Notes: a model not told the origin generated them from the sequence alone. Positions 1,045-30,917 are shown, counted from the first letter of the stretch. The stretch is 64,000 bases of DNA from an uncultured Trueperaceae bacterium (GCA_963727505.1 CAVSGP010000010.1:1-64000); one strand, 5' to 3'. Numbers and translations are program-made.

Positions 1045-1127
1045 GCTGCCCCATCCTATGCAGGCGCCGCTGTGCCCGCCCGCCGCGCGCCCGACACAGC
1101 GCGGCTGCGGCCGCCCGAACCGCTACC

Positions 1128-14230: not shown

Positions 14231-15592
14231 TCAGCGCCAGGGGAAGCCGGTGCGGCGCCAGCCGGTGCGCATCTCGCGCAACAGGTCGCGGGTGCGCCAG
14301 GCCTCCGCCTCCTGGACCGGTCGCAACAGCCGCCATGCCTGGCTGCGCCCCAGTCCGGAGATCAGGAACAGCGAGTGGTAGCCCGTCCAGGTCATCCCGA
14401 ACAGGTGCAGCGGGGCGGTCTGCAGCAGCGTCAGCAGCGGGCCGGAGAGGACGCCGCCGATGAAGCCCGCCAACCCTGCCACCAGCGAGTACATGGCGAT
14501 GAAGGCCACCCGACCTTCGCGCGGCGCCGACACCAGCGCCAGGTTGAACAGGGCCGGCGTGGCGGCGCCCCACGCCAGGGCGTCGCAGAAGCCGGCGATC
14601 CAGATCCAGTAGACGTGGCCGGTGAAGCCCGCCAGGATCCAGGTGGCCGGCAGCAGGGTCCCCGCCAGGAAGGCGCCGAGCGCCAGCACCGACTTGTTGC
14701 CCACGCGGTCGGCCACCCGCCCCCACAGACTGCTGGTGAGCAGCGCCGTGACCGCGGCGATGCCGCTCCAGATGGCGATCTCCGTGAAGCTGAGCTTGAG
14801 CTGCTCCAGGAAGTACGGGATCACGAAGGGCGCGGCCAGGAGCACCACGAACTGCCAGTAGGCGGCGAAGACCAGGAAGCGCCGGAAGTTGGCGTCGCGT
14901 AGCGGCGTGACCAGCACGTCGCGCAGGGCAGCCCGGCGGCGCGGGCTGGGCGGGTCGTACTGCCGGAAGTACAGCGCGACGCCCACACCGGCGCTCAACA
15001 TCGCCACCACGATCACCACCTGGAAACCGATCGGGGCGGCCACGCGGTCGAGGAACCAGCCGGCGGCGAGGTTCGCCAGCATGCCCACCACACCCACCAC
15101 GCCGGCCCGGAAGCCGAAGTAGCGGCCGCGCTGCTTCTCCGGCACCACGTCGCCCATCCAGGCGCTCCAGAGCGTGCCGTTCGACGCCTGGAAGACCGCG
15201 GACACCAGCACCAGCAGCACCATCAGGCCGGGAAGCTCGGCGGCGGGAAGGCCCAGGCTCGGGAGCAGCGCGGCGAGCACCCAGATGCCGCGGCCGAGGA
15301 CCGCCACGAGCGCCGTCAGCAGGCGCCGGCGCCCCAGCAGGTCGGCCGCCAGAGCGGCCAGCGGGCTGGCGGCCTGGGCCAGGAGCGGCACGCTCGAGAC
15401 CAGGGCGATCTCGGTGGCGCCCGCGCCGAGGTGGAGCATGAACCCGATCAGCACGGCGCCCGAGGTCCAGTTGAGGAAGACCTGGGTGGCGCTCCCCTCC
15501 AGCACCGACACGCGCATGGTGCGGCGCACCAGCTCGGAGACCGAGGGGAAGGACCTGAACGGGCGGGGGTGGGGGATGGGGGTCGCTTGCAT
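14231..15592 (-). CDS. MFS transporter
   Basis: About 12 hydrophobic segments; WGRVADRVGNK motif. Confidence 0.85.
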   Translation of the reverse strand: MQATPIPHPRPFRSFPSVSELVRRTMRVSVLEGSATQVFLNWTSGAVLIGFMLHLGAGATEIALVSSVPLLAQAASPLAALAADLLGRRRLLTALVAVLGRGIWVLAALLPSLGLPAAELPGLMVLLVLVSAVFQASNGTLWSAWMGDVVPEKQRGRYFGFRAGVVGVVGMLANLAAGWFLDRVAAPIGFQVVIVVAMLSAGVGVALYFRQYDPPSPRRRAALRDVLVTPLRDANFRRFLVFAAYWQFVVLLAAPFVIPYFLEQLKLSFTEIAIWSGIAAVTALLTSSLWGRVADRVGNKSVLALGAFLAGTLLPATWILAGFTGHVYWIWIAGFCDALAWGAATPALFNLALVSAPREGRVAFIAMYSLVAGLAGFIGGVLSGPLLTLLQTAPLHLFGMTWTGYHSLFLISGLGRSQAWRLLRPVQEAEAWRTRDLLREMRTGWRRTGFPWR

Positions 15593-15787
15593 GGCTGGGG
15601 GCGTGCGTGCTGCGGGGCTCGGCGCGGCGGCGCCCCGGCCGCGATCGGCGCCCCCCGATGTCGGCCGGGGCGCCTCGGGCGAACGTCAGTGTACGGCACC
15701 GGACAACGCGTTCGCGAGGGTCCTGGGCACCGGCGGCCGGACGCCGACGGGTAGACTGCGTCGTCGCGTCTTCCTGGCACAGGCGCG

Positions 15788-15813
15788 GCATCCGTTTCGG
15801 CGGCCGCCGCGTA
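15788..15813 (+). promoter_or_regulatory. Putative autoregulatory ECF promoter
   Basis: GCATCC-N16-CGTA directly upstream of the ECF sigma gene; same motif at 30871-30896. Confidence 0.6.
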
Positions 15814-15824
15814 GGAGAGGGTAG

Positions 15825-16387
15825 GTGTACGACACGGTGGAACAGACACCGAGCGACGCCGAGCTGGTCGCGCGGGTCGCGCGGGGCGAGGAAGACGCCC
15901 TGCAAGCGCTGTACCGGCGCCACGGTGGAGCGGTCACCGCGCTCGCGCACCGCATGCTGGGGGACCGACAGGAGGCGGAGGAGATCCTTCAAGACACCTT
16001 TCTCCGGCTCCACCGTCACGCTGCCAGCTTCGACCACCGGCGCGCGGCGCTCCGGACCTACCTCTTCGCGATCGCCCGGAACCTGTGCCTGTCGCGTCTG
16101 CGGGCCCGCTCGAGCCGTCCCCGCAAGGCGGCCGAGGCCGACCCGCACGACGTCGCCTTCCAGGCGGCGGTGGGCTCGTACGACGACCCGCTGCCCGGCA
16201 TCGTGGTCCGTGGCGCGCTGGCGCGGCTGGAGAGCGACGAGCGGTCATGCTGGAAGCGGCCTTCTACCAGGGCTTCAGCCACAGCGAGTTGGCGGAGCTG
16301 ACCGACCTGCCACTGGGCACCGTGAAGAGCCGCCTGCGCCGCGCACTCGCCAGACTCCGCACGATGCTGGAAGGGGGCGCCGCGTGA
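15825..16387 (+). CDS. ECF sigma factor (SigK-like), one frameshift near 16245
   Basis: Region 2 AEEILQDTF..YLFAIARN in one frame; region 4 SHSELAELTDLPLGTVKSRLRRAL in the next. Confidence 0.88.
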
Positions 16388-17120
16388 ACGCCGAGCCGAC
16401 GCTCCGCGAGCTGCTGCCCGACTACCTGCTCGGGTTGCTGGCGCCGGAGGAGGCCACCCGGGTGGGCGAGGCACTGGCACGCTCGACGGAGCTGCGTGCC
16501 GAGGCCGACGCCCTGAGGGCCGCCCTGTTCGCACTGCCCGGAAGCGCTCGAGCCCGAAGCCCCGGCTCCCGGCTCCTGGGAGACGCTGCTGGCACGCGTC
16601 CGTGGCGAGCGCTCCGAGCCGCCGCGGGAGCCCGCGCCCAGCGCGCCGCCTGCGGCGCGCAGGCGGCGCCGGCGCCGGTCCCCGGCCGCCCTGGGGGCCC
16701 GCCGCACGCCCGGCGCCCCGTCCTGGCCGTGGCGCTCGCCATCGCCCTGACGCTGCTCGTCGGCACCGCGGGCTGGGGCGCCCTGCAGCAGCGCCGCGCC
16801 GACCTCGCCGCGCACGAGGAAGCGGTGATCGCCTACTGGATGCGCATCCCCGAGTTCAAGATCGTGCCGCTCGAGGCCGTGCGGGGCGGCCACCCCGGCG
16901 TGGCCTGCGTGCTCCCCGACGGGCGCGCCATGGTGCTCCAGCCCCACGCTCCCGGCGCGGGTCGTTCCTACGTGCTGTACGGGTTGACCGGCACCGGCCG
17001 GGTCGAGCTGGGCCGGACCCGCGGCCGCCTCCTGCTGTTCCGCGCCGACGGCCTGAAGGGCGTCGAGCTGGCCGTCGGCGGTCCGTCCGGCGGGGTGGTC
17101 GCCCGGGCCGGGTTGAACCA
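16384..17120 (+). CDS. Anti-sigma factor (RskA-like); internal indels, end approximate
   Basis: GTGA overlap with the sigma gene; ELLPDYLLGLL..EE anti-sigma domain; single TM helix; extracytoplasmic C-terminus. Confidence 0.7.
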
Positions 17121-17154
17121 GCGGCGGTCCGCGCGGCCCGCACCCCGGTCCGAG

Positions 17155-18465
17155 CTAGGAGGCCACGCCGCACCACGCCAGCGTCGCGCGGGCCAGCACC
17201 TTGGTGACGTCGCGCACGCTGGGGAGATCGACCCACTCGTCGGGCGCGTGCAGGTTGGCGCCGACGGGACCGTAGCAGGTCGCGGGGATGCCGTGGTGGT
17301 GCGCGAAGAAGCGCACGTCGGTGGTGGCGGTGCTGACGTAGGGCAGGGCGTCGTCGCCCATCACCACGCGGTGGGCGCTGCGCAGCCCCTCGAACAGCGG
17401 CGTCGTGGTGTCGATCAGACAACCCTCGGCCTTGAAGCCGTAGAACTCGATCTCCGGCGGATGCTCGGCCAGCCAGGGGTCCTGGGCCGCGAACGCCAGC
17501 AGGTCCCGCCGGAAGTTGGCCTGCGCCGCATCCAGGTCCGCTCCCGGGTAGGCCGAGAAGCGCACCTCCAGGACGCACTCCGAAGGCACCGAGGAGGGCC
17601 AGTCGCCGCCGCGCACCACGCCCACGTTGTAGTTGAGCGGGTGCGCCACCTCGCGGTAGGCCGGGTGGCGGGCGCCGGGCTCGTTGGCCGCGGCCTCCAG
17701 CGCCCGGATCCCCTGCATCAGGAAGGCGGCCTTGTCGTTGGCGTTGACCGCCCGGTCCGCGCCCAGCACGTGCGCGCCCGCGCCCAGCACGGTGATGCGC
17801 GCCCACAGCACCCCGATCTGGGCGGTGAGCAGCGTCTGGTTGAAGGGCTCGGGGATGATCGCGGCGTCGGCACGCCCGCCGGCGGCGAGGTCGGTCACGG
17901 CCGCCAGGCTACCGTTGCCGGTGCACTCCTCCTCGATCACGGTCTGCAGCAGCACGTCCCCGGCCAGCGCCACGCCGGCGCGGCGGATGGCGGCGACGGC
18001 GTAGAGCATGGCGGCGATACCGGCCTTCATGTCGGCCGCGCCCCGCCCGTACATCCGCTCCCCGACGATCTCGGCACCCCACGGGTCGACTCTCACAGCC
18101 GCTCGGGGGTGGCCGGCACCACGTCGATGTGGCCGTTGAGCACCAGTGAGCGTCCGCCCCTGCGCTCGCCGGCGCGCTCGCCGGTGTGTCCGGCGAGTCG
18201 GGCGGCCACGTTGGGCCGGTCGCGGTAGGCCCAGTCGGCGGGCGAGTAGCCCGGGAGCCGGGCGATGGCGGCGTGGTCGACGTCCTTCGCGGTGGCCTCC
18301 AGGCCCACGGCGCGGAGCTCCTCGATCACCCGCTCCTGCGCGGGCGCTGTCACCCAGCGTGCTGGGCCGTCGCACCAGCTCCCCGAGGAAGGCGACCTCG
18401 GCGTCCCAGGCGCGGTCGACCTGCCGCTCGACCTCCCCCCACGCGTCGTCGAGCACGGCGCTCAT
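17155..18465 (-). CDS. ArgE/DapE family (M20) deacylase; two compensating frameshifts (~18350, ~18095)
   Basis: GRSLVLNGHIDVVP in a shifted frame; GRGAADMKAG, EEECTGNG, H.PDEWV. Confidence 0.85.
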   Translation of the reverse strand: MSAVLDDAWGEVERQVDRAWDAEVAFLGELVRRPSTLGDSARAGAGDRGAPRRGPGGHREGRRPRRHRPAPGLLARRLGLPRPAQRGRPTRRTHRRARRRAQGRTLTGAQRPHRRGAGHPRAAVRVDPWGAEIVGERMYGRGAADMKAGIAAMLYAVAAIRRAGVALAGDVLLQTVIEEECTGNGSLAAVTDLAAGGRADAAIIPEPFNQTLLTAQIGVLWARITVLGAGAHVLGADRAVNANDKAAFLMQGIRALEAAANEPGARHPAYREVAHPLNYNVGVVRGGDWPSSVPSECVLEVRFSAYPGADLDAAQANFRRDLLAFAAQDPWLAEHPPEIEFYGFKAEGCLIDTTTPLFEGLRSAHRVVMGDDALPYVSTATTDVRFFAHHHGIPATCYGPVGANLHAPDEWVDLPSVRDVTKVLARATLAWCGVAS

Positions 18466-19205
18466 GCCCGTCCTCCCGGCGTCGTGCGGCCCTCGTCCCG
18501 CGCCGCCCGTTCCATCGCCTCTTCCATCGCTCGTTCCATCGCCTGTTCCATCGCGTCCTCCATGACCGCCACCGGCCCCCGCGTCACGACCCGGACCGGG
18601 GTGGCGGCCCTCACGTCCTCGACCGACACCTCGCGAGCGCGTTCCCTGAGCCGTAGGCCGTCGTCGGTGACCTCGAACAGCCCCAGCTCGGTCACGATCA
18701 GGCCGGCGGCGCGCGGCGCCGTCAGGGGGAGATCGCAGCGCTCCACGATCTTGGGCTCGCCCGAGCGGGTGCGGTGGCGCGTCAGCACGATGGTGCGGCG
18801 CGCCTTGGCCGCCAGCTCCATGCTGCCGCCCATGCCGGGGCTGGGGCCGCCCGGCGCCTTCCAGCTCGCGATGTCGCCGCGGCCGCTCACCTGCATGGTG
18901 CCGAGCACCGCCGTGCCGAGGCGCCCGCTGCGCACCAGCGCGAAGGCCAGGGCGCTGTCGAAGACGGCGGTCTCCGGTGCGCGCGAGATCGGTTCGCCGC
19001 CGGCGTTGATGAGGTCGACGTCCACCTCGCCTGCGGGAGGGCGCGGTCCGATGCCGGCGATGCCGTCCTCGGCGAACAGCACCACCCGCCGCCCCGGCGG
19101 GATGTGGTTGCCGACCAGGGTGGGCAGCCCGATGCCGAGGGCGACCAGCTCGCCGTCCTCGAGCAGCAACGCCGCGCGCCGCGCGATCAGCTGACGTGGG
19201 TCCAC
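18462..19205 (-). CDS. 3-oxoacid CoA-transferase subunit B
   Basis: IARRAA..LGIGLPTLV, AEDG catalytic Glu, GMGGSMEL; RBS GAGGAGG. Confidence 0.88.
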   Translation of the reverse strand: MDPRQLIARRAALLLEDGELVALGIGLPTLVGNHIPPGRRVVLFAEDGIAGIGPRPPAGEVDVDLINAGGEPISRAPETAVFDSALAFALVRSGRLGTAVLGTMQVSGRGDIASWKAPGGPSPGMGGSMELAAKARRTIVLTRHRTRSGEPKIVERCDLPLTAPRAAGLIVTELGLFEVTDDGLRLRERAREVSVEDVRAATPVRVVTRGPVAVMEDAMEQAMERAMEEAMERAARDEGRTTPGGRA

Positions 19206-19236
19206 GACGGAGCCTCCTCTCCGGTACGCGCCCGGC

Positions 19237-19953
19237 TCATGTCTTGGGCGCCGGGATGCCGGCCGGGACCGGGCTCCCCGGCACCAGGTAGTCGACGAAC
19301 GCCCCCGGGATGTGGACGGCGTCGGGGTCGAGCTCTCCCGCCGGCACCAACGTGCGCACCTCGGCGACGACCACGTCCGCCGCCATCGCCACCAGCGGGT
19401 TGAAGTTGCGGGCCGTGCCGCGGAACACGAGGTTGCCGTAGGCGTCGCCGACGTCGGCCAGCACGATGCCCAGCGGCGCGCGCAGAGCGGGCTCGAGCAG
19501 GTAGGCACGGCCGTCGACCTCGACGAGGCGCTTGCCCTGTTCGACCTCGGTCCCCAGACCCACGTCCACCAGCACGCCCCCCAGGCCCGCGCCGCCGGCG
19601 CGGATACGTTCGGCCAGCGTGCCCTGCGGCACGAAGGTCACGTGCAGACGGCCCTCGTTCATCTGCTCGATGGCGATCGGGTTGGAGCCGATGTGCGACA
19701 CCACGGCACGCTCCACCTGCCCGGCGCGGATCAGCTTGCCCACGCCGTGGGAGGGGTAGCCGGCGTCGTTGCCGATGATGCTCAGCCGCCCGAAGCCGGC
19801 GGCCACCAGGGCGTCGACGAGCAGCGGCGGCGTACCGATGCTGCCGAAGCCCCCGAACAGGAAGGTGGCGCCGTCGGAGAACAGCGCCATGGCGGCCTCG
19901 GCGTCGATGACCTTGCCGTAGCTCCCGCTCCCCTGCAGCTTCGCGCCGTTCAT
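19237..19953 (-). CDS. 3-oxoacid CoA-transferase subunit A
   Basis: GGFG, PQGTLAERIRAGGAG, ARNFNP, VHIPGAFVD. Confidence 0.9.
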   Translation of the reverse strand: MNGAKLQGSGSYGKVIDAEAAMALFSDGATFLFGGFGSIGTPPLLVDALVAAGFGRLSIIGNDAGYPSHGVGKLIRAGQVERAVVSHIGSNPIAIEQMNEGRLHVTFVPQGTLAERIRAGGAGLGGVLVDVGLGTEVEQGKRLVEVDGRAYLLEPALRAPLGIVLADVGDAYGNLVFRGTARNFNPLVAMAADVVVAEVRTLVPAGELDPDAVHIPGAFVDYLVPGSPVPAGIPAPKT

Positions 19954-19956
19954 GCG

Positions 19957-21459
19957 CTACGCGTCCTCCTCGATCACCAGGCGATCGTACGCGTCACGCC
20001 ACGGCCGGGCGCGTTCGAACGCGGCGCTGGCGGCGAGCACGCGGGCGTCCTCGAAGCGGCGGCCGATCAGCTGCAGGCCCACGGGCAGGCCGTCGGACGT
20101 GAACCCGGCGGGGATCGACGCCGCCGGGTGGCCGGTGAAGTTGATGGGGTAGGTGAGGCACCAGCCGATGAAGGGATCGACGGCCTGCCCCTCGACCTCC
20201 GACGGACCGCGCGTGGTGCCGTCGCCGGCGTTGTCGATGCCGGCCACCGAGAGGGTGGGGGTCACCACCAGATCGAAGCGGTCGAAGACGTCCTGGAGGC
20301 GGTCGAAGACCTCGGTCCGGAGCACGTCGTCGAGCCGGTAGTCGACCGCCATTTGCTCGCGCCCGAGCTCCAGCTTGTGGCGGTAGTCGGGGTCGAGCTG
20401 GTCGGCGAGCTCGCCCAGCAGGTCGATGCCGGCCCGCGCCATGGACACCGCGGACTCGACCGCCCGCACCGCGCTGGTGCGCGTCCACATGTCGGCCAGC
20501 TCCTGGTGGGGACGGGTCCAGGCGAGGTCGATGCGCTCGACGTGCATACCGAGCTCCTCCAGCGCGCTTAGCGCGCGCTCGACCGCGTCGCGCACCTGCG
20601 GCTCGACCGGGAAGCCCCCGAAGTCGGGGCTGTAGGCGACCCGCAACCCCGCCACCGGCGCGCGCGTGGCAGCGACCAGGTCGTCGCCCAGCTCCGGCAG
20701 GCACAACGGGTCGCGGGGATCGGGACCGACCATCGCCTGCAGCATGAGCGCGGCGTCCTCCACCGTGCGGGTCAGCGGGCCGCTGTGGGCGTAAGGGGTG
20801 TGCAGCAAGAAGGCGTCCGGGCGGGCCGCCACCGGCACCCGGCCGAAGGTCGCTTTGAAGCCGTAGACGCCGCACAGGGCCGCCGGGATGCGGATGGAGC
20901 CGCCGCCGTCGGAGCCCTCGCCCAGCGGCGCCAGCCCGGCGGCCACCGCGGCGGCGCTGCCGCCCGAGGAGCCCCCCGCGTTCTTGCCGGGCGCGAACGG
21001 GGTGCTGGTCGGTCCGAACAGCCGGTTGTCGGTGGTCCCCTTGTAGCCGAACTCGGGGGTGTTGGTCTTGCCGATGGCGATGGCCCCGGCCGCCTCCAGC
21101 CGCGCCACCGGCGTGGAGGTCTGGCTCGCGACGTGATCCCGGAAGGGGAGCGAGCCGTAGGTGGTGCGCACCCCGGCCTTGGTCTCGAACAGGTCCTTGA
21201 GGGCGAAGGGCACGCCGTGGAGCGGGCCCAGCGGCCCGCCGGCCATGACCGCGCGCTCGGCCTCGCGTGCGGCGTCCAGCGCCGCCTCGGCGAGGACGGT
21301 GACGAACGCGTTGAGCGCGCCGTTGTGGCGGTCGATGCGGTGCAGGTGCGCCTGAACGACCTCGACGGGCGAGATCCGGCGGGTGCGGATGAGGCGCGCC
21401 AGCTCGCTGGCGGAGAGGGTGACGGGCGATCGTTCCAAGGGTGGGTCTCCTGGGTTCAC
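19957..21459 (-). CDS. Amidase signature family enzyme
   Basis: GVPFALKD, GKTNTPEFG, GGSSGGSAAAVA, GSDGGGSIRIPA. Confidence 0.92.
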   Translation of the reverse strand: MNPGDPPLERSPVTLSASELARLIRTRRISPVEVVQAHLHRIDRHNGALNAFVTVLAEAALDAAREAERAVMAGGPLGPLHGVPFALKDLFETKAGVRTTYGSLPFRDHVASQTSTPVARLEAAGAIAIGKTNTPEFGYKGTTDNRLFGPTSTPFAPGKNAGGSSGGSAAAVAAGLAPLGEGSDGGGSIRIPAALCGVYGFKATFGRVPVAARPDAFLLHTPYAHSGPLTRTVEDAALMLQAMVGPDPRDPLCLPELGDDLVAATRAPVAGLRVAYSPDFGGFPVEPQVRDAVERALSALEELGMHVERIDLAWTRPHQELADMWTRTSAVRAVESAVSMARAGIDLLGELADQLDPDYRHKLELGREQMAVDYRLDDVLRTEVFDRLQDVFDRFDLVVTPTLSVAGIDNAGDGTTRGPSEVEGQAVDPFIGWCLTYPINFTGHPAASIPAGFTSDGLPVGLQLIGRRFEDARVLAASAAFERARPWRDAYDRLVIEEDA

Positions 21460-21510
21460 ACCCGCGGCTGCGGGGCGGTCCGGACCGGCCGGCGGCCCGG
21501 CAGGCGCGGT

Positions 21511-21578
21511 GCCGGTGGGGTGGATGCCGGTGGGGTGGATGCCGGTGGGGTGGGTGCCGGCGGGGTGGGTGCCGGCGG
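21511..21578 (+). repeat. 15-bp tandem repeat (GCCGGTGGGGTGGRT, ~4.5 copies)
   Basis: Seen directly between the ABC ATPase and amidase genes. Confidence 0.85.
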
Positions 21579-21595
21579 CATCCGATGCGGTGAGA

Positions 21596-22341
<746 letters not shown>

Positions 22342-22345
<4 letters not shown>

Positions 22346-23106
22346 GGGCTCCCCTCATCATCGACCGACGCGAGCCGCGTCAGCCGCCGGCCGCGCCGAC
22401 GATGGATGGGATCGGCGACGCGCTCGAAATAGACGAACAGGAAACTGGCAACCATCGACAGCACAAGATAGATGACCGCTGCGGCGGCCCACATCATCGC
22501 CGGCTGGTAGTTGTAGGCGATGCCCCGCTCGGTCGCGAGGGTGAGCTCCACCACGCTGATGGTCGAGGCCAGCGAGGAGTCCTTGAGCAGCGCCAGGGCG
22601 TAGTTGCCGAACGGCGGGATCATGATGCGCACGGCCGGCGGGATGACCACGAAGCGCATGATGTCGTTGCTGCCCAGCCCCAGGCTGGCGGCGGCCTCGA
22701 CCTGCCCCTTGTGGATCGACTCGATGCCCGCGCGGATGACCTCCGCCAGATAGGCGCCGTACCCGAGCGAGAGCGCGGTCACGGCGGCGGCGAAGGGGCT
22801 GAGGTGGGGAGGGAGCATGACGCTCCCTCCACTCAGCGGTCCGAAGACGAACCTGTTCAACCAGGTGAAGATCTGCGGCGTCGCGAAGTAGGCGAAGAAG
22901 ATCTGCACCAACGCCGGCGTGCCGCGGAAGAGCTCGATGTAGAACCTCGCCAGGCCCCGCACGACCACGACACGGGAGCGCCGCATCAACGCCGCGATCA
23001 GGCCGAACAGCAGCGCCAGGACGTAGGTGAGGACCGACAGCTCCACGCTGAGCACGGCGCCGCGCAGCAGCGCGTGGACGATGGCGGGGGTGAGGATCTG
23101 GCTCAT
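22342..23106 (-). CDS. Polar amino acid ABC transporter permease
   Basis: [29 protein letters not shown]. Confidence 0.93.
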
Positions 23107-23130
23107 GTCACCGGTCGAACGACGTCATGG

Positions 23131-23931
23131 CTACTTGGTGGTGATCGGCATGTTGAAGCAGCGGGACACGATGTCCTGGTTGAACCACTTCATGCTGATC
23201 TGCTTGAGCGTGCCGTCGTTGTAGAGCGCCACGAGCGCCTTGTTGAGCGCCGCCTTGAGCTCGGGGTTGTCCTTGGAGACGGTGACGTTGGCCAGGTCGA
23301 CGTAGAGCAGGTCGCCGACCGGCTTCAGCGGGGCGCCCTGGCTGATGGCGTACGAGCCCACCGCGAGGTCGGTCACGAGGCCGCCGACGATGCCCGACTG
23401 CACGGCCTGGATGCCGGTGGGGTCGTCCTTGTAGGTCTTGAAGGCGATGCCCTGCTTGGTGAGGTACTGCTCGTAGGTGGTGCCGAGCGCCACGGCCACC
23501 GGCTGCTTGAGCTGGGTGATGTCGGTGACGGTGGAGTCCTTGGGCACGAAGAGCTGGGCCCCGCCGCAGTGGTAGGGGTGGTCGAGATAGTCGACGGCGG
23601 CGGCGCGCTGCGGCGTGTACGCCTGGCTGGCCACGGCGACGTCGAAGATGCCGGACTGGACGCCCTGCACGATGGTGGCGAACTCGGCGGCGTCGACGCG
23701 GGCGGCGACCCCGAGCTGCTTGGCCAGCGCCTTGGCGACGTCGGCGTCGTAGCCGACGAGCTGCTGGTCGGCGTTGAAGAGGCTGAACGGCGGGTAGCCG
23801 CCGGACATGACCTCGATCATGTAGCCGCGCTTCTGGATCGTGGCCAGGTCCGCCGCACTGGCGATGCCACCTACCAGGAGCACCGCCGCCAGCACGGCTC
23901 CGATGACGAATTTCAAGCGTGCACGTGTCAT
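23131..23931 (-). CDS. Polar amino acid ABC transporter substrate-binding protein
   Basis: Signal peptide; YPPFS, GYDAD, DGTL..IS.KWF. Confidence 0.9.
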   Translation of the reverse strand: MTRARLKFVIGAVLAAVLLVGGIASAADLATIQKRGYMIEVMSGGYPPFSLFNADQQLVGYDADVAKALAKQLGVAARVDAAEFATIVQGVQSGIFDVAVASQAYTPQRAAAVDYLDHPYHCGGAQLFVPKDSTVTDITQLKQPVAVALGTTYEQYLTKQGIAFKTYKDDPTGIQAVQSGIVGGLVTDLAVGSYAISQGAPLKPVGDLLYVDLANVTVSKDNPELKAALNKALVALYNDGTLKQISMKWFNQDIVSRCFNMPITTK

Positions 23932-23989
23932 TCCTACCTCCATACCGGAGCCTTGCTCTCCAGCATTGCTCCCACGAACGGGTGGCCGG

Positions 23990-25357
23990 TCAGGCGGGTT
24001 CCGGCGCGGGCATGCCGAGCTCGCGCTCGAGCGCGCTCACAGCGCCGTCCACCATGCCGACCAGGGCGTCGACCTCCGCCGCACCGATGGTGAGGGGAGG
24101 AGCGATCATCACGGCGTCGCCGGCGCCCTCCAGGGCGCCGGAGGCCGGGTAGATGAGGAGCCCCCGCTCGAACGCCTGGCGCACCAGGCGCCCGGTGACG
24201 TTCGTCTCGGGGGCGAAGGAAGCGAGCGACCCGTCGGTCACGAGCTCGAGCCCGACCAGCAGGCCGAGGCCGCGCACGTCGCCGAGGACGGGGTGGCGCG
24301 CCGCGAGGGTCTTCAGGGCGTTCATGAGCTGAGCGCCGCGCTCGCGCGCATTCCTGACCAGGTCGTGCTTCTCGACGTAGTCGAGGACGGCCAGCGCGGT
24401 GGCGGCGGACAGCGGGTTGAAGCTCAGGGTATGGCCGTAGAGGACGGCGCCGGAGCCCTGCCGGATCGGCTCCATCAGCGCGTCGCTGGCCAGCACCGCG
24501 GCGATCGGGGTATAGCCGGCGCCGAGACCCTTGCCGAGCACCAGCAGGTCCGGCACGACACCGTAGTGCTCGACGGCGAACATGGCGCCGGTGCGGCCCA
24601 CGCCCGTCATCACCTCGTCGGCGATGAACAGCACGTCGTTGGCGTCGCAGATGGCGCGGATGCGTGCGTAGTACTCGTGCGGCGGCGTGATGGCGGCGCC
24701 GCTGGCGCCCACCACCGGCTCTGCGATGAAGGCGGCGACGTTGTCCGCGCCCAGCGCGTCGATGTGCGTCTGCAGGTCGTCGGCGCAGGCGAGCTCGCAC
24801 GACGGGTAGGCGAGCGACAGCGGGCAGCGCAGGCAGTACGGGGTGGCGACACCGGCGTCCTTGGCCAGCAGCGCCTCGAAGCGCGAGCGCCGGAGGACGT
24901 GGCCCGACATCGACAGCGCGCCCAGGGTGATGCCGTGGTAGCTGATGCGCCGCGACAGCACGTGGGTCTTCTCGGGCCGGCCGCGCTCCTGCCAGTGCTG
25001 CAGGGCCATCTTCGCGGCCAGCTCGGTAGCCTCGCTGCCGCTGTTGACCAGGAACAACCAGCGCAGGTCGCCCGGCGCCAGAGCGCCGAGGCGCTCGGCC
25101 AGCGCATCCGCCGGCCGGTTGCCGAACTGCGAGCGGAACGCGAAGGTGAGCCTCTGGGCCTGCGCGTGCATGGCCTCGAGCACCTCCGGCACGCCGTGCC
25201 CGATGTTGGAGCAGACGGCGCCGGAGCAGCCGTCGAGGTAGCGCCGTCCCTCCTCGTCGTAGAGGTAGAGCCCCTCGCCCCGCACCGCGGTGGGCGGGAC
25301 GTGGTCGAGCCACGGGTGGATGACGTGACCGGTGCGACCCGGAGCGTCGTCGCTCAC
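23990..25357 (-). CDS. Class III PLP aminotransferase (YodT-like)
   Basis: YLDGCSGA, SGSEA, FIAEPVVG, FIADEVMTG.GRTG, PDLLVLGKGL. Confidence 0.9.
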   Translation of the reverse strand: MSDDAPGRTGHVIHPWLDHVPPTAVRGEGLYLYDEEGRRYLDGCSGAVCSNIGHGVPEVLEAMHAQAQRLTFAFRSQFGNRPADALAERLGALAPGDLRWLFLVNSGSEATELAAKMALQHWQERGRPEKTHVLSRRISYHGITLGALSMSGHVLRRSRFEALLAKDAGVATPYCLRCPLSLAYPSCELACADDLQTHIDALGADNVAAFIAEPVVGASGAAITPPHEYYARIRAICDANDVLFIADEVMTGVGRTGAMFAVEHYGVVPDLLVLGKGLGAGYTPIAAVLASDALMEPIRQGSGAVLYGHTLSFNPLSAATALAVLDYVEKHDLVRNARERGAQLMNALKTLAARHPVLGDVRGLGLLVGLELVTDGSLASFAPETNVTGRLVRQAFERGLLIYPASGALEGAGDAVMIAPPLTIGAAEVDALVGMVDGAVSALERELGMPAPEPA

Positions 25358-25361
25358 GCCC

Positions 25362-26672
25362 TCACCCCCCGATCCCTTCGGCCCGTACCGCGGCGAACGC
25401 CTCGCCCAGGATGGCGAAGGCGCGCGCCAGCTCGTCGTCCTCGACCGTGAGCGGCACCAGCACGCGCACCACGTTGCCGTCCCGGCCCGCCTTGAGCAGC
25501 AGCAGGCCGCGCCGGCGCGCCTCGGCGATGATGCGCTCGACCTGCCGTGCGCCGCGGCGCACGCCGTCCTCGCCGGGTTCGATCAGCTCCGCGGCCACCA
25601 TGGCGCCGAGGCCGCGCACCTCCGCGATGACGTCGTGTTCGGACTGCAGCGCCTCGAAGCGTTCGAACAGCGCGGCGCCGACGGCGCCGGCGCGCTCCAG
25701 CAGTCCGGTCTCCTCGAACACGTCGAGCACCGCCAGGGCCGCGGCGCACGCCAGCGGGTTGCCGCCGTAGGTGCCGCCGAGACCGCCCGGATCGGGGGCG
25801 TCCATGACGTCGGCGCGCCCGATCACTCCCGACAGCGGCAACCCGCCGGCGAGGCTCTTGGCCACCGTGATGAGGTCGGGCACGACGCCGCTGTGTTCGA
25901 TCGCGAAGAGGCTGCCGGTGCGCCCGAAGCCGCTCTGGATCTCGTCGACGATCAACAGCATGCCGTGGCGCTCGGTGAGCTCCCGCAGGGCGCGCAGGAA
26001 CGCGAACGGGGCGGGCACGAAGCCGCCCTCGCCGAGCACCGGCTCGATGAGCACCGCGGCCACCCGCTCGGGCGCCACCTGGCTGGCGAAGACGTCGTCC
26101 AGCGCGCGCAGCACGTCGGCAACGCTCCAACCCCGCAGGGGGTAGGGGAAGGGCGCGTGGTACACGTCCGGCGCGAACGGCCCGAACGTCTGCTGATAGG
26201 GGTCCGTCTTCCCGGTCAGGGTCATGCCGAGCAGGGTGCGCCCGTGGAAGCTGCCGCTGAAGGCGACGATGCCGGGCCGGCCGGTGGCGGCCCGGGCGAT
26301 CTTGACGGCGTTCTCGACGGCTTCCACGCCGGTGGTGAGCAGCAGCGTCTTCTTGGGCGCCTCGCCCGGCGCCAGCGCGTTGAGGCGCTCGGCCAGCCTC
26401 ACGTAGGGCTCGTACATGGCGACCTGCGCCGAGGTGTGGCTGAAGCGCTCGAGCTGCGCCTGTACGGCGTTGGTCACGCGCTCGTTGGCGTGCCCGATGT
26501 TCATGACGCCGATACCGCCGGTGAAGTCGATGTACTCGGCACCGTCGACGTCCCACAAGCGCGCGCCCTTGGCGCGCGCCGGGAAGATGGGATGGGCCGT
26601 CGCCAGCCCCCGCGGGACGTTGGCGTCCCGGACCCGGCCCAGCAGTACGTTTCGGGCTTCTGTCGACTCCAC
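25362..26672 (-). CDS. gabT: 4-aminobutyrate--2-oxoglutarate aminotransferase
   Basis: YIDFTGGIGV, EAVENAVKIAR, EPVLGEGG, AKSLAGGLPLS, GGLGGTYGGNP. Confidence 0.88.
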   Translation of the reverse strand: MESTEARNVLLGRVRDANVPRGLATAHPIFPARAKGARLWDVDGAEYIDFTGGIGVMNIGHANERVTNAVQAQLERFSHTSAQVAMYEPYVRLAERLNALAPGEAPKKTLLLTTGVEAVENAVKIARAATGRPGIVAFSGSFHGRTLLGMTLTGKTDPYQQTFGPFAPDVYHAPFPYPLRGWSVADVLRALDDVFASQVAPERVAAVLIEPVLGEGGFVPAPFAFLRALRELTERHGMLLIVDEIQSGFGRTGSLFAIEHSGVVPDLITVAKSLAGGLPLSGVIGRADVMDAPDPGGLGGTYGGNPLACAAALAVLDVFEETGLLERAGAVGAALFERFEALQSEHDVIAEVRGLGAMVAAELIEPGEDGVRRGARQVERIIAEARRRGLLLLKAGRDGNVVRVLVPLTVEDDELARAFAILGEAFAAVRAEGIGG

Positions 26673-26757
26673 CTCAGCCCAGCGCTCCCTTCGTTGTTGA
26701 ACGGGCCACCCTACCCCACGATGCGGCGACGCGCTACGGCTGCGGAGTACAAATGCG

Positions 26758-28392
26758 CTATGCAGTTTTGTCGTTCAACGACAACAGCTCGCCGGCGAGC
26801 TGCAGTTTGAAGCGCACGCCGGGGTCGGCCAGGTCGGCGTGAAGCGCCTGCGACACGCGCTCCAAACGGTAGCGCACGGTATTGACGTGTACGCCCATGC
26901 TCTGTGCCGTGCGCTTCGCCTCGAAACCGGCCCGCGCCCAGGCGACGACGGTGGCGACCAGCCGCTCGCCGCCACGGAGCGCGCGTACGGGCCCGAAGGC
27001 CTCGTCCAGCAGGGCGGCGCGCGCATCGGTGTCACCCAGCAGCACGCGCGGCACCAGCCAGGCGTCGTAGACGAGCACGCGCCGTGGAGCCAGCTGCGGC
27101 AGCAGCGAGCGCGCCTCGCGGAAGCTGAGCTCGATGCCCTCCACGCCGCTGCGGGCCCGGCCCCACACCATCCCCACCGCCTCGTCGACGCGCCCGACCT
27201 CCAGGGCACGCGGATCGATGCCGTCCTCGAGCAGGACGCTCACCTCGTTGAGCGACACCGACAGGAAGGGCGTGCCCCCCAGATCGGCGATGCGCCGCCC
27301 CAGGCGGTCGGCCAGCCGCTCGCGGCGCAGGAACCCCTCGCGCGAGAGCGGCAGCGGCACGTCGTGCAGCACCGCGATCCCGACGCGATAGCCGCGCCCC
27401 CACTCGAAGCCGAGCAGGCGGGCGCGCTCCAGGTTCTGGGGGGTGGGCTCGAGCCGGCCCTCCAACAGCGAGTCGAGGAAGGCGTAGCCCAGCCGCGACT
27501 CGAGCTGCGCCAGCGTCTGCTGGTGGGTGATGTGCAGCGCCACCACGGTGGCGGCGTGCTCGGCGGCGCGCAGGTCCAACTCCCCGACCGGACTGTCGCC
27601 CTCGAGGACCCACACCAGCCCCACCAGCTCGCCGCTCACCCGGATGGGGCAGGCGACGCGCGCCGACAGCTCGAGCTCGGGCAGCGCCGGCACACGCACC
27701 GGATCCTTCTGGCTGCGCAACCGCTGGAGGTAGCCCAGCCGCTCCAGCTCGGCCATCACGTCGGGGGGCGTGACCCCGTCGTGGAGGGTGGTGGTCCGCA
27801 CCCGGTCACGCTCGAGCCCCGGCCCCGTCGCGTCGGCGTCGGCCGGCAGATAGGAGGCGGCGAAGAGCTGCCCGGTCGGGCTCTCGAAGGTCACGTCGCG
27901 GCGGATGAGCTCACTGAGCACGTTGGCGATCTGCTGCAGGCTGGAGGCCTGCACCGCGGCCTGCGTCAGCGCCCGGTGGATGGCCTCGGAGCGCTCGATC
28001 ACGCGGTGCTGTTCGGTCAGCAGCGCACGCTGCGCCTCCTCGGTGATGCGCGCGAAGGGGATCTCCCAGGGCACCTCCAGCACCGGCAGCCCCACCGCAT
28101 CGGCCTCCTCCACCACCGCCGGCGGAACCTCGCTGAAGAACTGCGGCACCGCCAGCGCCAGCGCCGCCAGCCCGCGCTCCTCCAACGAGCGCACGAACCG
28201 GCGCTGCCCCGCCTCGTCGCGCGGCCAGGCGTAGCCGGTACTCAGCAGGAGCTGCCCCGGCTGCAGCCACTGGTGCGGGTCGGGGATGTCGACCACGCCG
28301 CTCCAGGACACCTCACGGCCGATCCCGGCGCGCCCGGCCACGAGCCGGGCACGGCCCAGCAGCGGCAGCGTCAGCAGCTCGGACACGCGCAC
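26758..28392 (-). CDS. PucR/CdaR family transcriptional regulator
   Basis: N-terminal PucR domain (LVAGRAG..REV, WLQPGQLLLSTG); C-terminal HVNTVRYRL HTH. Confidence 0.92.
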   Translation of the reverse strand: MRVSELLTLPLLGRARLVAGRAGIGREVSWSGVVDIPDPHQWLQPGQLLLSTGYAWPRDEAGQRRFVRSLEERGLAALALAVPQFFSEVPPAVVEEADAVGLPVLEVPWEIPFARITEEAQRALLTEQHRVIERSEAIHRALTQAAVQASSLQQIANVLSELIRRDVTFESPTGQLFAASYLPADADATGPGLERDRVRTTTLHDGVTPPDVMAELERLGYLQRLRSQKDPVRVPALPELELSARVACPIRVSGELVGLVWVLEGDSPVGELDLRAAEHAATVVALHITHQQTLAQLESRLGYAFLDSLLEGRLEPTPQNLERARLLGFEWGRGYRVGIAVLHDVPLPLSREGFLRRERLADRLGRRIADLGGTPFLSVSLNEVSVLLEDGIDPRALEVGRVDEAVGMVWGRARSGVEGIELSFREARSLLPQLAPRRVLVYDAWLVPRVLLGDTDARAALLDEAFGPVRALRGGERLVATVVAWARAGFEAKRTAQSMGVHVNTVRYRLERVSQALHADLADPGVRFKLQLAGELLSLNDKTA

Positions 28393-28443
28393 GATGGCGC
28401 CAGCCTACCCCCGGCGGTCCCCCGAGCGGCCGCTCTGCGCCGG

Positions 28444-28486
28444 GGGACGTTCTTCCCTTCGGCGCTCCGGGCGTTTACCGTAGCGT
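28444..28486 (+). promoter_or_regulatory. GGGAC-N4-GTCCC-type box plus -10 element
   Basis: GGGACGTTCTTCCC (one mismatch), 23 nt, TAGCGT. Confidence 0.5.
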
Positions 28487-28527
28487 CGGAGCCGGAGAAC
28501 GGCCGGAGAGGTCGGGTCGGGAGCATC

Positions 28528-29805
28528 ATGCGCATCGTCACCGCAGAACAGGCCGTCGAGGTCGTCCACTCGCGCGACCGCGTGTTCGTCCACAGCGTGG
28601 CCGCCGCCCCGCAGCGCCTGCTCGCGGCGCTCACGGCTCGCTGGCGCGAGTTGCAGGGCGTCGAGATGATCCACCTGCACACCGAGGGACCCGCACCCTA
28701 CGCCGACGCGGCGTACGCCAGGAGCTTCCACACCAGCGCGCTGTTCGTCGGACCCAACGTACGAGCGGCGGTCGAGCAGGGACAGGCGGACTACATCCCC
28801 ATCTTCCTGAGCGAGGTGCCGGACCTGTTCCGCAGCGGCGCCATGCCGCTCGACGTGGCACTGGTGCAGGTCTCGCCGCCGGACCGTCACGGCTACTGCT
28901 CGCTCGGCGTGTCCGTCGACGCCACCCGAGCCGCCGTGCACGCGGCCCGAACGGTGGTCGCGCAGGTCAACCCGAACATGCCCCGCACGCACGGCGACGG
29001 CCTGCTGCACGTCTCGAACATCGACCTGGCGGTGGACGTGGACGATCCCATCCCCGAGGTGCCCCCCGCTCCGGCGGGCCCGGAGGCGCGCGCCATCGGC
29101 CTCCACTGCGCCGCCCTGATCGAGGACGGCGCCACCCTGCAGATGGGCATCGGCGCCATCCCCGACGCGGTGCTGGCCTCCCTCGGCGACCACCGCGACC
29201 TCGGCATCCACACCGAGATGTTCTCCGACGGCGCCATCGACCTGATCGAGAGGGGCATCATCACCGGCGAACGGAAGGTCAGCCACCCCGGCAAGGTGGT
29301 CGCGAGCTTCGTGATGGGCACGCGCCGGCTCTACGACTTCGTCGACGACAACCCGCTGCTGGCGCTGCTCGATGCCGGCTACGTCAACGACACCGCCGTC
29401 ATCCGGCGCAACCCGCGGGTGACCGCCATCAACAGCGCCGTCGAGGTCGACCTCACGGGCCAGGTGTGCGCCGACTCCATCGGCACCCGTCAGTACTCCG
29501 GCGTCGGCGGCCAGATGGACTTCATACGCGGCGCCTCGCTCTCCGAGGGCGGCAAGCCGATCATCGCCCTGCCCTCGACCACCCACGACGGGGCGAGCCG
29601 GATCGTGCCGTTCCTGAAGCAGGGGGCGGGCGTGGTCACCACCCGCGCCCACGTCCACTTCGTGGTGACCGAGTACGGCGTGGCCAGCCTCTACGGCAAG
29701 GCGCTGCGCCAACGCGCGCGGGCGCTCATCGGCATCGCCCACCCCGACCATCGCGAGGCGCTGGAACGCGCGGCCTTCGAGCGCTTCCAGCGGATGCCCG
29801 CCTGA
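28528..29805 (+). CDS. Acetyl-CoA hydrolase / 4-hydroxybutyrate CoA-transferase family
   Basis: LQMGIGAIP, LGIHTEM, SGVGGQMDF, VVTEYG. Confidence 0.92.
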   Translation: MRIVTAEQAVEVVHSRDRVFVHSVAAAPQRLLAALTARWRELQGVEMIHLHTEGPAPYADAAYARSFHTSALFVGPNVRAAVEQGQADYIPIFLSEVPDLFRSGAMPLDVALVQVSPPDRHGYCSLGVSVDATRAAVHAARTVVAQVNPNMPRTHGDGLLHVSNIDLAVDVDDPIPEVPPAPAGPEARAIGLHCAALIEDGATLQMGIGAIPDAVLASLGDHRDLGIHTEMFSDGAIDLIERGIITGERKVSHPGKVVASFVMGTRRLYDFVDDNPLLALLDAGYVNDTAVIRRNPRVTAINSAVEVDLTGQVCADSIGTRQYSGVGGQMDFIRGASLSEGGKPIIALPSTTHDGASRIVPFLKQGAGVVTTRAHVHFVVTEYGVASLYGKALRQRARALIGIAHPDHREALERAAFERFQRMPA

Positions 29806-29905
29806 CGCCGCCGCCGAGACTGCCGCGGCGGCCGCCGCCGAAGCACAAGCGCGCGGCGCCCGCTGCCTCAGGCAGCGGGCGCCGCGATCCAGCCCTGAAG
29901 GCGAT

Positions 29906-30115
29906 TCAGGCGCGTTTACGTGGCTTCGTGCTGGCGCCGAACAGGGTGTACAGCGGGCAGAAGCCCACCGCCCCGGTGAGCAGCAGGATCGCTCCGACGA
30001 TGGCGAAGACAACCATCCATACGCCGGAGAGCCAACCGAACACCCACGCGGAGAGCAGAACGAGCCCGGCGATGACCCGGATGACCCGATCGGTAGTGCT
30101 TTCGTTGATCGTCAT
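29906..30115 (-). CDS. DUF2892 (YgaP-like) membrane protein
   Basis: NE.TTDR..R, GFCPLY.LFG.ST; RBS GAGGAGG. Confidence 0.88.
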   Translation of the reverse strand: MTINESTTDRVIRVIAGLVLLSAWVFGWLSGVWMVVFAIVGAILLLTGAVGFCPLYTLFGASTKPRKRA

Positions 30116-30182
30116 GGCCTTGCCTCCTCGGACTGCAGCATAGCGCACTATTGGCGCCATAGGAATGGTAGAAATAGGAACA

Positions 30183-30830
30183 ATGTCGAGCCGCGACGAA
30201 CTCCTGCGCCACCTCAAGATCCGCGGGCCCAGCACCGTCCGCCAGCTCGCCGAGGCCACCGGCCTGTCCGACAACGCGGTGCGCCACCACCTGGCGCGGC
30301 TGCGCCAGCAGGGCTTCGTCGACGAGCACGCCCTGCGCGAGGGGGTGGGCCGGCCGGCGCACCGCTACGCCCTCACCGCTCAGGCCGAAGGCGCCTTCCC
30401 CAAGCGCTACGTCGACCTGCTGGAGGCCGTGCTCGAGAGCGCCGCCGCGCGGGGCCTGCTCGACACGCTGCTCGACGACGTGGCGGCCGCGCTCGCCGCG
30501 CGCGTCAAGGACGAGCTCGAGCCGCTCCCGCCGCGCGCACGGCTGCTCAAGCTGATGCAGCAGCTCGACTACGGCGAGATGCTGGGGCGCCTCGCCAATA
30601 CGCCGGGAGGCTGGGAGTTCGAGGCCTACAACTGCGTCTACCGCGCCACCGGAGAACGCTTCGTCGGCGTCTGCGACCTGCTGCCGAAGGTCGTCGTGGA
30701 CGCCACCGGGATGGATGCAGAACGCGTGCGCTGCCAGCGCGACGGCAACCACACCTGCCACTTCGCAGGTAGCTACGGGACGAGCCCGAACGGGCAGCGC
30801 GACGGGGCGAGAGAGCGACGGCTCGTAGGG
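30183..30830 (+). CDS. Winged-helix regulator with Cys-rich C-terminus (SufR/COG2345-like); stop codon missing in this assembly, end approximate
   Basis: LS.NAVRHHL..L, GRP..RY.LT, YNC..C..C......C; runs in frame into the next gene. Confidence 0.75.
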
Positions 30831-30870
30831 CGACCGACCCGCACGAGGCACCGAGCCCGCCCGAGCGCCT

Positions 30871-30896
30871 GCATCCGGACGCCCTCCCCGTGCGTA
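30871..30896 (+). promoter_or_regulatory. Putative ECF-dependent promoter
   Basis: GCATCC-N16-CGTA, same as upstream of the ECF sigma gene. Confidence 0.55.
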
Positions 30897-30917
30897 GGGG
30901 TGGATGGAGGTACTCCC

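Follow-up and report, generated by a model that had tools for sequence, protein, structure and literature searches.

What compound is taken up and degraded by an operon that joins an amino acid importer, two aminotransferases, a coenzyme A (CoA) transferase and two amide hydrolases in a single run? The question is raised by positions 17155 to 28392 of a stretch of DNA from an uncultured Trueperaceae bacterium (GCA_963727505.1, CAVSGP010000010.1:1-64000). This stretch, referred to here as the window, corresponds to the initial 64 kb of contig C10 in a 3.26 Mb genome that has a G+C content of ~70% and is 97.4% complete. An earlier note on this DNA had proposed a pathway for N6-acetyl-beta-lysine or a related N-acyl amine. 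N-epsilon-acetyl-beta-lysine is an osmolyte of halophilic methanogens, in which it can be a major solute, and of some bacteria. We lean slightly towards a reading in which the operon would import an N6-acyl-beta-lysine of external origin, in the simplest case N-epsilon-acetyl-beta-lysine, and degrade it via 4-aminobutyrate (GABA) to succinate semialdehyde. What sequence comparison establishes, as described below, is to which families the genes belong, that the block is conserved and that biosynthetic genes are absent.

A ten-gene operon

Gene families were assigned by calling open reading frames (ORFs) and scoring them with Pfam and NCBIfam profiles against curated cut-offs. The run consists of ten minus-strand genes placed head to tail from 17155 to 28392, with intergenic gaps of -4 to 136 bases (Table 1). 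The earlier note had described a PucR regulator, gabT, an aminotransferase, an importer, an amidase, both CoA-transferase subunits and an ArgE deacylase on this strand, and all ten genes were found there.

Table 1. Genes of the minus-strand run and its divergent neighbor, with the profile scores on which each assignment is based
Gene product	Coordinates	Strand	Profile evidence
PucR-family transcriptional regulator, first gene of the run	26758..28392	-	PF07905, 119 bits; PF13556, 62.5 bits; GGDEF_2
4-aminobutyrate aminotransferase (gabT)	25362..26672	-	TIGR00700, 528.8 bits (cut-off 506.65, passed)
YodT-type class III aminotransferase, putative N6-acyl-beta-lysine (beta-amino acid) transaminase	23990..25357	-	NF005375, 608.8 bits (cut-off 535)
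Family-3 solute-binding protein of polar-amino-acid ATP-binding cassette (ABC) importer	23131..23943	-	SBP_bac_3, PF00497, 115 bits; N-terminal signal-like sequence
ABC permease (HEQRo type)	22342..23106	-	PF00528; TIGR01726, 82.6 bits (cut-off 42.2)
ABC ATPase	21596..22345	-	Best NCBIfam match GlnQ, 342 bits (below cut-off 379)
Amidase-signature amidase	19957..21459	-	PF01425, 355 bits (above gathering cut-off)
3-oxoacid CoA-transferase subunit A	19237..19953	-	TIGR02429, 204.9 bits (cut-off 128.5, passed)
3-oxoacid CoA-transferase subunit B	within 18462..19205	-	TIGR02428, 238.6 bits (slightly below cut-off 243.55)
M20 ArgE/DapE-family deacylase, probable PRK06837 subfamily	17155..18465	-	NF005306, 394.6 bits (cut-off 376); residues 120-435 only
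Acetyl-CoA hydrolase/transferase-family protein, divergent from PucR; membership uncertain	28528..29805	+	PF13336, PF02550

The sole sizeable gap inside the operon is the one of 136 bases (21459-21596) between the ATPase and amidase genes. It includes a G-rich stretch (21547-21558) that is not present in the near-identical genome G095. A promoter and terminator scan of 16000-30000 was uninformative: no promoter-like site was found, and terminator-like sites numbered 2, with 2.4 expected.

Kinship with the kamA-linked genes of Bacillales

The set to which the operon had been likened is the yodT-yodS-yodR-yodQ set of Bacillus; in B. subtilis the order is yodT-yodS-yodR-yodQ-yodP-kamA. The aminotransferase was said to be of the YodT kind, and three comparisons bear this out. 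First, it passes NF005375, the PRK06917 equivalog, as the kamA-linked enzymes do (748 bits for locus L046 and 853 for L063); the enzymes of an Actinomycetota metagenome-assembled genome (MAG) and of G053, another genome of the family, score 634 and 564 bits. An Arthrobacter relative that has no partner genes fails the model, with 489 bits vs the cut-off of 535. Second, the Bacillus albus aminotransferase finds the cluster enzyme as its best match in this genome (436 bits; next best, 200). Third, it shares a clade of 42 rows with the Bacillales YodT-type enzymes in the tree described below. The window enzyme is 50-58% identical to those of Bacillales, and its K276 is invariant (alignment A1). 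A Paenibacillus protein that is 54% identical (P0099) is named N6-acetyl-beta-lysine transaminase (EC 2.6.1.65), an automatic label only.

The tree was a quick maximum-likelihood tree of 88 rows, namely 87 aminotransferases (G095 was omitted as identical to the window) and a gabT outgroup, and its branch support comes from the SH-like approximate likelihood ratio test (SH-aLRT) only, with no bootstraps. The eight aminotransferases of the family form one clade (SH-aLRT 97, starred). This clade lies within the 42-row clade (90, unstarred), alongside a 29-row clade of Bacillales and Cyclobacteriaceae (99, starred). Genes for both CoA-transferase subunits and the M20 deacylase accompany 36 of these 42 rows.

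The B. albus CoA-transferase subunits match nothing in this genome except cluster genes; for subunit A the sole matches are the two cluster copies, on contigs C10 and C3. The B. albus M20 protein also has the cluster M20 as its best match (230 bits; next best, 113). For all four core genes the best match between the window and B. albus is reciprocal. From these comparisons, three of the four core genes can be called orthologous to the kamA-linked set. The proposal that the operon holds the same set as yodT-yodS-yodR-yodQ thus stands for the aminotransferase and CoA-transferase A/B; it does not for the M20 enzyme, which belongs to a sister subfamily of YodQ.

The core in other taxa

A scan of one genome per species yielded 79 loci around relatives of the aminotransferase, or 87 with the eight loci of the family. 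The core, defined as the aminotransferase, both CoA-transferase subunits and the M20 deacylase, is complete in 37 of the 87, including 8/8 family loci and 29/79 others. The latter are mostly from Bacillales, with two from Cyclobacteriaceae, one from Planctomycetaceae and one from the Actinomycetota MAG. All 37 core loci have the CoA-transferase pair with the aminotransferase, and an M20 gene was found in 0/50 non-core loci. Outside the family (29 loci), the core is accompanied by an AblB-like GNAT in 26, KamA in 20 (LAM_C and radical-SAM domains were checked with Pfam in two), a sigma-54 activator in 18, gabT in 9, an aldehyde dehydrogenase in 9, PucR in 6, a thiolase in 5 and a family-3 binding protein in 2.

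The gene order in B. albus is aminotransferase, CoA-transferase A, CoA-transferase B, M20, GNAT, activator, KamA. The YodT/S/R/Q-like set therefore adjoins KamA and the GNAT, as the earlier note had stated for Bacillus, together with the sigma-54 activator. This order matches the B. thuringiensis kam locus, which is described as consisting of kamA and six upstream genes under sigma-54/KamR control (PMC4428206).

Two of the other architectures bear on the route. In Paenibacillus tyrfis a single block holds an ABC importer, PucR, a Glu/Leu-type dehydrogenase, the aminotransferase, CoA-transferase, thiolase, M20, gabT and aldehyde dehydrogenase, which on paper would be a complete route. The Planctomycetaceae locus has a PRK06837-type M20 with the aminotransferase, CoA-transferase, thiolase and gabT, and no amidase.

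A genome-wide search for the KamA family in five genomes of other lineages gave matches above the cut-off in three, and none in the Sporolactobacillus and Cyclobacteriaceae genomes. The Cyclobacteriaceae loci L074 and L076 and the genome G368 have the core and an AblB-like GNAT, yet no genomic KamA-family match above the cut-off. This may be a variant in which imported beta-lysine is acetylated.

Absence of biosynthetic genes and steps encoded elsewhere

Neither the KamA family (TIGR00238) nor the AblB/YodP GNAT (TIGR03827) was found in the genome of the window or in 5/5 other cluster-bearing genomes of the family (92-98% complete), while both models matched control genomes. Likewise, the B. 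albus KamA and GNAT had no match in this genome at E 1e-5. The suggestion that an importer and gabT replace the biosynthetic genes here is therefore upheld by 6/6 cluster-bearing family genomes. Since the family does not have the enzymes that make and acetylate beta-lysine, such a substrate must come from outside the cell.

The operon had also been said to contain no thiolase or cleavage enzyme, and none is present in the run; the four thiolase genes of the genome are located on other contigs. A gene similar to that for succinate semialdehyde dehydrogenase also occurs elsewhere in the genome (638 bits vs a cut-off of 646). A BKACE-type enzyme was considered for the C-C cleavage step and rejected, as none was found in the genome. 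With thiolases present and BKACE absent, CoA transfer followed by thiolysis is the available cleavage route, which agrees with the thiolases found inside clusters of other taxa (5/29).

Conservation within the family and a second copy

Orthologs of the aminotransferase were searched for in 127 other genomes of the family, with a threshold of at least 59% identity, and were found in eight: 5/9 of the genus, and G012, G013 and G053. The eight family loci are those of six other genomes, of the near-identical G095 and of contig C3 of the same genome. The order PucR-gabT-aminotransferase-binding protein-permease-(ATPase)-amidase-CoA-transferase A-CoA-transferase B-M20 is kept in 7/8 of these loci and in three genera, at aminotransferase identities down to 61-64%. 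The clusters of G012 (L041) and G013 (L040) have the binding protein and permease and no ATPase gene, and there the amidase directly follows the permease. The eighth locus, that of G053, holds only the aminotransferase, CoA-transferase A and B and M20; the three ORFs upstream of it have no Pfam match and are not like inner-membrane transporters. The genes that flank the cluster differ among genera (G012, G013 and G053 were examined), and thus contribute no further genes to the pathway. The block itself is thus the conserved unit, and the recurrence of one order in 7/8 loci with different flanks argues that the arrangement is not due to chance.

Contig C3 (43,983 bases) of the same genome is collinear with window positions 1110-44517, cluster included, at 81-94% DNA identity. 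A true second, paralogous copy of the cluster was rejected because C3 also repeats housekeeping genes (polyphosphate kinase and fabH/fabD/fabG/acpP/fabF) and because G095 has a single copy, its contig (43,412 bases) beginning at the same position. C3 more probably stems from a sister strain binned with this one, or from a bubble in the assembly, than from a duplication.

The M20 deacylase

The earlier note had paired the ArgE-type deacylase with YodQ. This has to be revised, as the window protein fails the YodQ-type model NF005373 (PRK06915), with 231 bits vs a cut-off of 428, and probably belongs to the sister model PRK06837 (NF005306). On NF005373, five M20 proteins of the family and that of the Planctomycetaceae locus L117 score 282-336 bits, and all seven M20 proteins tested from Bacillales, Cyclobacteriaceae and the Actinomycetota MAG exceed the cut-off, with 640-842 bits. 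On NF005306, the intact M20 proteins of the C3 copy, G095, G097, G012 and G053 score 488-524 bits. The two models cross-score strongly, and thus represent sister subfamilies that occupy the same syntenic slot. As the enzyme is not of the YodQ type, the acyl group or the step on which it acts may differ.

Although the M20 ORF stays open over 436 codons, the NF005306 profile matches only its residues 120-435. Profile positions 40-115 are encoded in another frame at 18099-18347 (~85 residues, ending in TGA). In a three-frame translation the homology leaves the ORF frame after ...RRPSTLG, runs through ...LNGHIDVVPATPERL to the TGA and rejoins the ORF frame at VDPWGAEI. The disrupted stretch (~18093-18348) includes the out-of-frame metal-binding stretch NGHIDVVP, which presumably holds the His and Asp metal ligands.

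Single bases at 18093, 18343 and 18348 are absent from the window relative to G095 (99.5% identity over 20 kb). Contigs from public runs that bridge these sites carry the extra base (X2 and X5 at 18093, X5 at 18340, X1 and X5 at 18348), and other such contigs break exactly at the indel sites. The single-base indels between the window and G095 lie at 15553, 15570, 16246, 16540, 16657, 17132, 18093, 18343, 18348 and 18435. The likeliest cause of the broken frame is an erroneous consensus, the assembly being a mixture of strains. A true M20 pseudogene was rejected as less likely, because the missing bases are present in G095, X1, X2 and X5 and the indels cluster at 15.5-18.5 kb.

The indel run from 15553 to 18435 also suggests poor consensus quality in this part of the window, where other ORFs may be mis-framed.

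The amidase

The closest solved chain to the amidase is 4yj6, deposited as 'Aryl acylamidase' (413 bits, full length), an enzyme that we take to cleave N-acetyl-arylamines. K88, S164 and S188 are invariant in 11 sequences (alignment A2), and the protein contains a GGSSGGS stretch; the three residues presumably form the Lys/cis-Ser/Ser triad of the amidase-signature family. Within the phylum the amidase occurs in only 8/364 genomes, all of which carry the full cluster, and it has no counterpart in the Bacillales loci. Homologs with ~60% identity are common in metagenomes, Rubrobacteraceae, Actinomycetota and haloarchaea. No cluster genes were found nearby in 78/79 metagenome loci with a homolog (36-62% identity), and six annotated neighborhoods are heterogeneous, with MFS transporters, a set of IclR, aldehyde dehydrogenase, Fe-type alcohol dehydrogenase and M20 genes, or acyl-CoA genes. 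These contexts were rejected as a guide to the substrate, since they gave no lead. The amidase is best described, from its distribution, as a recruited, lineage-specific addition to the cluster. Possible roles are deacetylation of 4-acetamidobutyrate, opening of an amide-linked precursor of the transaminase substrate, and hydrolysis of a lactam side-product.

Importer, CoA-transferase, GabT and PucR

The family-3 binding protein, the HEQRo-type permease and the ATPase together have the makeup of a polar-amino-acid (PAAT) ABC importer. No component reaches a substrate-specific NCBIfam equivalog cut-off. The best NCBIfam scores of the binding protein, both below cut-off, are 147 bits for a cystine-binding and 112 bits for a Lys/Arg/Orn-binding protein. 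Its closest solved chain is 3vv5_A (118 bits), which we take to be a Thermus Lys/Arg/Orn-binding protein. The sequence of the binding protein gives no ligand.

CoA-transferase A is 47-57% identical to the subunit of other core loci. In subunit B, (S/A)ENG is presumably the motif with the catalytic glutamate of class I CoA-transferases. The window protein has AEDG at this point, where five relatives, including those of G012 and G053, have AENG or SENG; the glutamate is kept. The cluster gabT, which adjoins the core in 7/8 family loci, is a second copy dedicated to the cluster; the other copy is on contig C9 (535.4 bits on TIGR00700). PucR keeps the first position in 7/8 family loci and probably switches the operon on.

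Proposed pathway and its alternatives

In the pathway that we favor, the operon would be substrate-inducible and catabolic. The family-3 ABC system would take up the acylated beta-lysine, and the aminotransferase, whose YodT-type family is firmly assigned, would remove the 3-amino group to give 6-acylamido-3-oxohexanoate. CoA-transferase A/B, likewise assigned by family, would turn this into the 3-oxoacyl-CoA. A thiolase encoded elsewhere, as the in-cluster thiolases of other taxa suggest, would release acetyl-CoA to leave 4-acylamidobutyryl-CoA. The M20 deacylase, perhaps with the amidase, would free GABA, and the cluster GabT, also well placed in its family, would convert GABA to succinate semialdehyde. 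Finally, an aldehyde dehydrogenase encoded elsewhere would complete the route. Every substrate in this scheme is inferred, and so are the sequence in which the two hydrolases act, the part played in trans by a thiolase and a dehydrogenase, and how the operon is regulated.

Several observations weigh against this pathway. The M20 proteins score below the YodQ-type model (231-336 vs 428 bits) and are 32-39% identical to the Bacillales enzymes, and the present assembly has a broken M20 frame. The classical route has no place for the amidase, and its homologs occur elsewhere in unrelated contexts. The binding protein shares only 31-33% identity with its counterparts next to the aminotransferase genes of Paenibacillus and Sporolactobacillus, and its best family matches are generic (cystine, Lys/Arg/Orn, glutamine). 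CoA-transferase B falls slightly under its cut-off and has AEDG in place of AENG. In the tree, the branch that unites the family and Bacillales clades has an SH-aLRT of 86-90, unstarred, in a quick search without bootstraps, and four sequences without partner genes (two from Arthrobacter, one each from Streptomyces and Ottowia) lie near the family clade, in the same subclade. Finally, one report describes YodT as still uncharacterized and KamA as functionally unresolved (PMC6522883).

The main rival keeps the enzyme logic (beta-amino acid to 3-oxoacid to 3-oxoacyl-CoA) and changes the imported compound. This could be an N-acyl conjugate or amide of some other beta-amino acid, for example a solute of the 3-aminobutyrate, beta-glutamine or beta-alanine type, or else a beta-lysine conjugate of larger size. 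One amide bond would then be opened by the amidase and another by the M20 enzyme, and GabT would handle an omega-amino acid besides, or other than, GABA. Such a compound fits the presence of two distinct amide hydrolases in the operon, one beyond the needs of the acetyl-beta-lysine route, the strict association of the amidase with the importer, gabT and PucR (7/8 family loci; all 8 of the 364 phylum genomes being carriers), and the M20 subfamily, which is other than that of YodQ. The partner-less Arthrobacter, Streptomyces and Ottowia aminotransferases share the subclade, so specificity may vary there. However, the window aminotransferase passes the equivalog of the kamA-linked type, which the partner-less Arthrobacter relative fails. 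Moreover, gabT accompanies the core in 9/29 loci tied to KamA or the GNAT, which is consistent with a C6 beta-amino acid carrying a terminal nitrogen, and the Planctomycetaceae locus combines a PRK06837-type M20 and gabT with the aminotransferase, CoA-transferase and thiolase without any amidase. We consider a different imported compound unlikely, while taking it seriously.

An acetyl-polyamine or 4-acetamidobutyrate route, in which the aminotransferase acts on N-acetylputrescine or a similar amine, GABA arises from 4-acetamidobutyrate through deacetylation by the amidase or M20 enzyme, and GabT finishes, is improbable. It would make use of gabT and of the two candidate deacetylases, and the amidase's closest solved relative was deposited as an aryl acylamidase, that is, a hydrolase of N-acetyl-amines. 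It leaves unexplained the CoA-transferase pair, which every one of the 37 core loci has together with the aminotransferase. In addition, an aldehyde dehydrogenase is present in 0/8 family loci, the importer is of the polar-amino-acid type with no polyamine-binding protein among its NCBIfam matches above E 1e-5, and the aminotransferase groups with kamA-linked enzymes.

Endogenous catabolism of L-lysine via beta-lysine as in the Bacillales loci, with the importer bringing in lysine, could draw on the presumed Lys/Arg/Orn-binding relative 3vv5 and on the Paenibacillus loci that combine an importer with KamA and the GNAT, but is nearly excluded by the failure to find KamA-family and AblB-type genes in 6/6 cluster-bearing family genomes or any match to the B. 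albus KamA and GNAT in this one at E 1e-5.

Other features of the window

The gene that diverges from PucR (28528..29805) has butyryl-CoA:acetate CoA-transferase as its best NCBIfam match (298 bits vs a cut-off of 675). It adjoins the cluster in 5/8 family loci, all from the genus of the window, and in 0/29 other core loci. As a guess, its product could recycle acetate released by the pathway.

At 30165-31745 (+), a 526-residue ORF combines an N-terminal ArsR-type helix-turn-helix with four copies of PF03640 (Lipoprotein_15, 'secreted repeat of unknown function'); this is either an unusual architecture or two genes read as one. At 981-3487 (+), LamB/YcsF is followed by carboxyltransferase C_D and A_B domains, a layout that we take to be that of the three-part 5-oxoprolinase; an 851-residue ORF (932-3487) overlaps the LamB ORF.

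Comparison with known systems

With a YodT/S/R/Q-like core, no biosynthetic genes, and an importer and gabT in their stead, the cluster is a testable candidate for a catabolic route. Such a route would give a function to the uncharacterized yodT-yodQ genes of Bacillus, and would link osmolyte release by methanogens with aerobic heterotrophs of saline sediments. Close relatives of the window DNA are present in public-run contigs labeled sediment, soil and salt marsh (X1, X2, X3 and X5). No paper that assigns genes to acetyl-beta-lysine breakdown was found in the literature searched. We tentatively suggest, at less than even confidence, that the operon is the first bacterial scavenging route for N-epsilon-acetyl-beta-lysine to be defined at the level of genes, through which aerobic Deinococcota of saline sediments would obtain carbon and nitrogen. 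If so, sequences would become available for the orphan activities EC 2.6.1.65 and EC 3.5.1.51, and the widespread yodTSRQ genes of Bacillales would be the catabolic half of a lysine-to-succinate pathway. In a bolder version, the lineage-specific amidase would widen the diet to amide-linked conjugates of beta-lysine. If the substrate is another one, the cluster is still a conserved and portable module for degradation of beta-amino acids.

The Bacillales kam/yod locus shares the four-gene core with the window in the same order, and its aminotransferase passes the same NCBIfam equivalog. It differs in having KamA, the AblB/YodP GNAT and a sigma-54 activator, none of which is in the window cluster, whereas the latter adds the ABC importer, the amidase, gabT and a co-directional PucR, and its M20 enzyme is of the PRK06837 type. 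As far as the available text of two reports goes, the Bacillales locus itself has no biochemical assignment (PMC6522883, PMC4428206).

The nearest overall architectures are those of Paenibacillus tyrfis and P. elgii and of Brevibacillus (L046, L068, L085, L054 and L060), which have PucR, the core and gabT; in the Paenibacillus loci a polar-amino-acid ABC importer also lies beside the core, as in the window. However, these loci go further in some respects, with genes for a thiolase, an aldehyde dehydrogenase and a GNAT and, in L068, for KamA. An amidase is missing from them, PucR is transcribed divergently from the core, the M20 enzyme belongs with YodQ, and the binding protein shares only 31-32% identity with that of the window.

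The beta-lysine pathway of Pseudomonas B4 comprises N6-acetyl-beta-lysine transaminase (EC 2.6.1.65) and 4-acetamidobutyryl-CoA deacetylase (EC 3.5.1.51); no gene sequences for it were found in the literature searched. It resembles our proposal in the transamination at C3, the CoA-dependent two-carbon cleavage, the deacetylation to GABA and the transamination of GABA. Pseudomonas B4 acetylates beta-lysine itself. In the route proposed for the window, cleavage would require a CoA-transferase and a thiolase, since the genome has no BKACE enzyme.

Finally, the enzymes of the ectoine Ehu/Doe operons are unrelated to those described here, and the window transporter scores below the Ehu cut-offs (301 vs 345 bits for EhuA and 62 vs 191 for EhuB). 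The organization is nonetheless alike, in that the genes for an importer adjoin those for a hydrolase, a transaminase and a regulator and serve a zwitterionic osmolyte derived from an amino acid.

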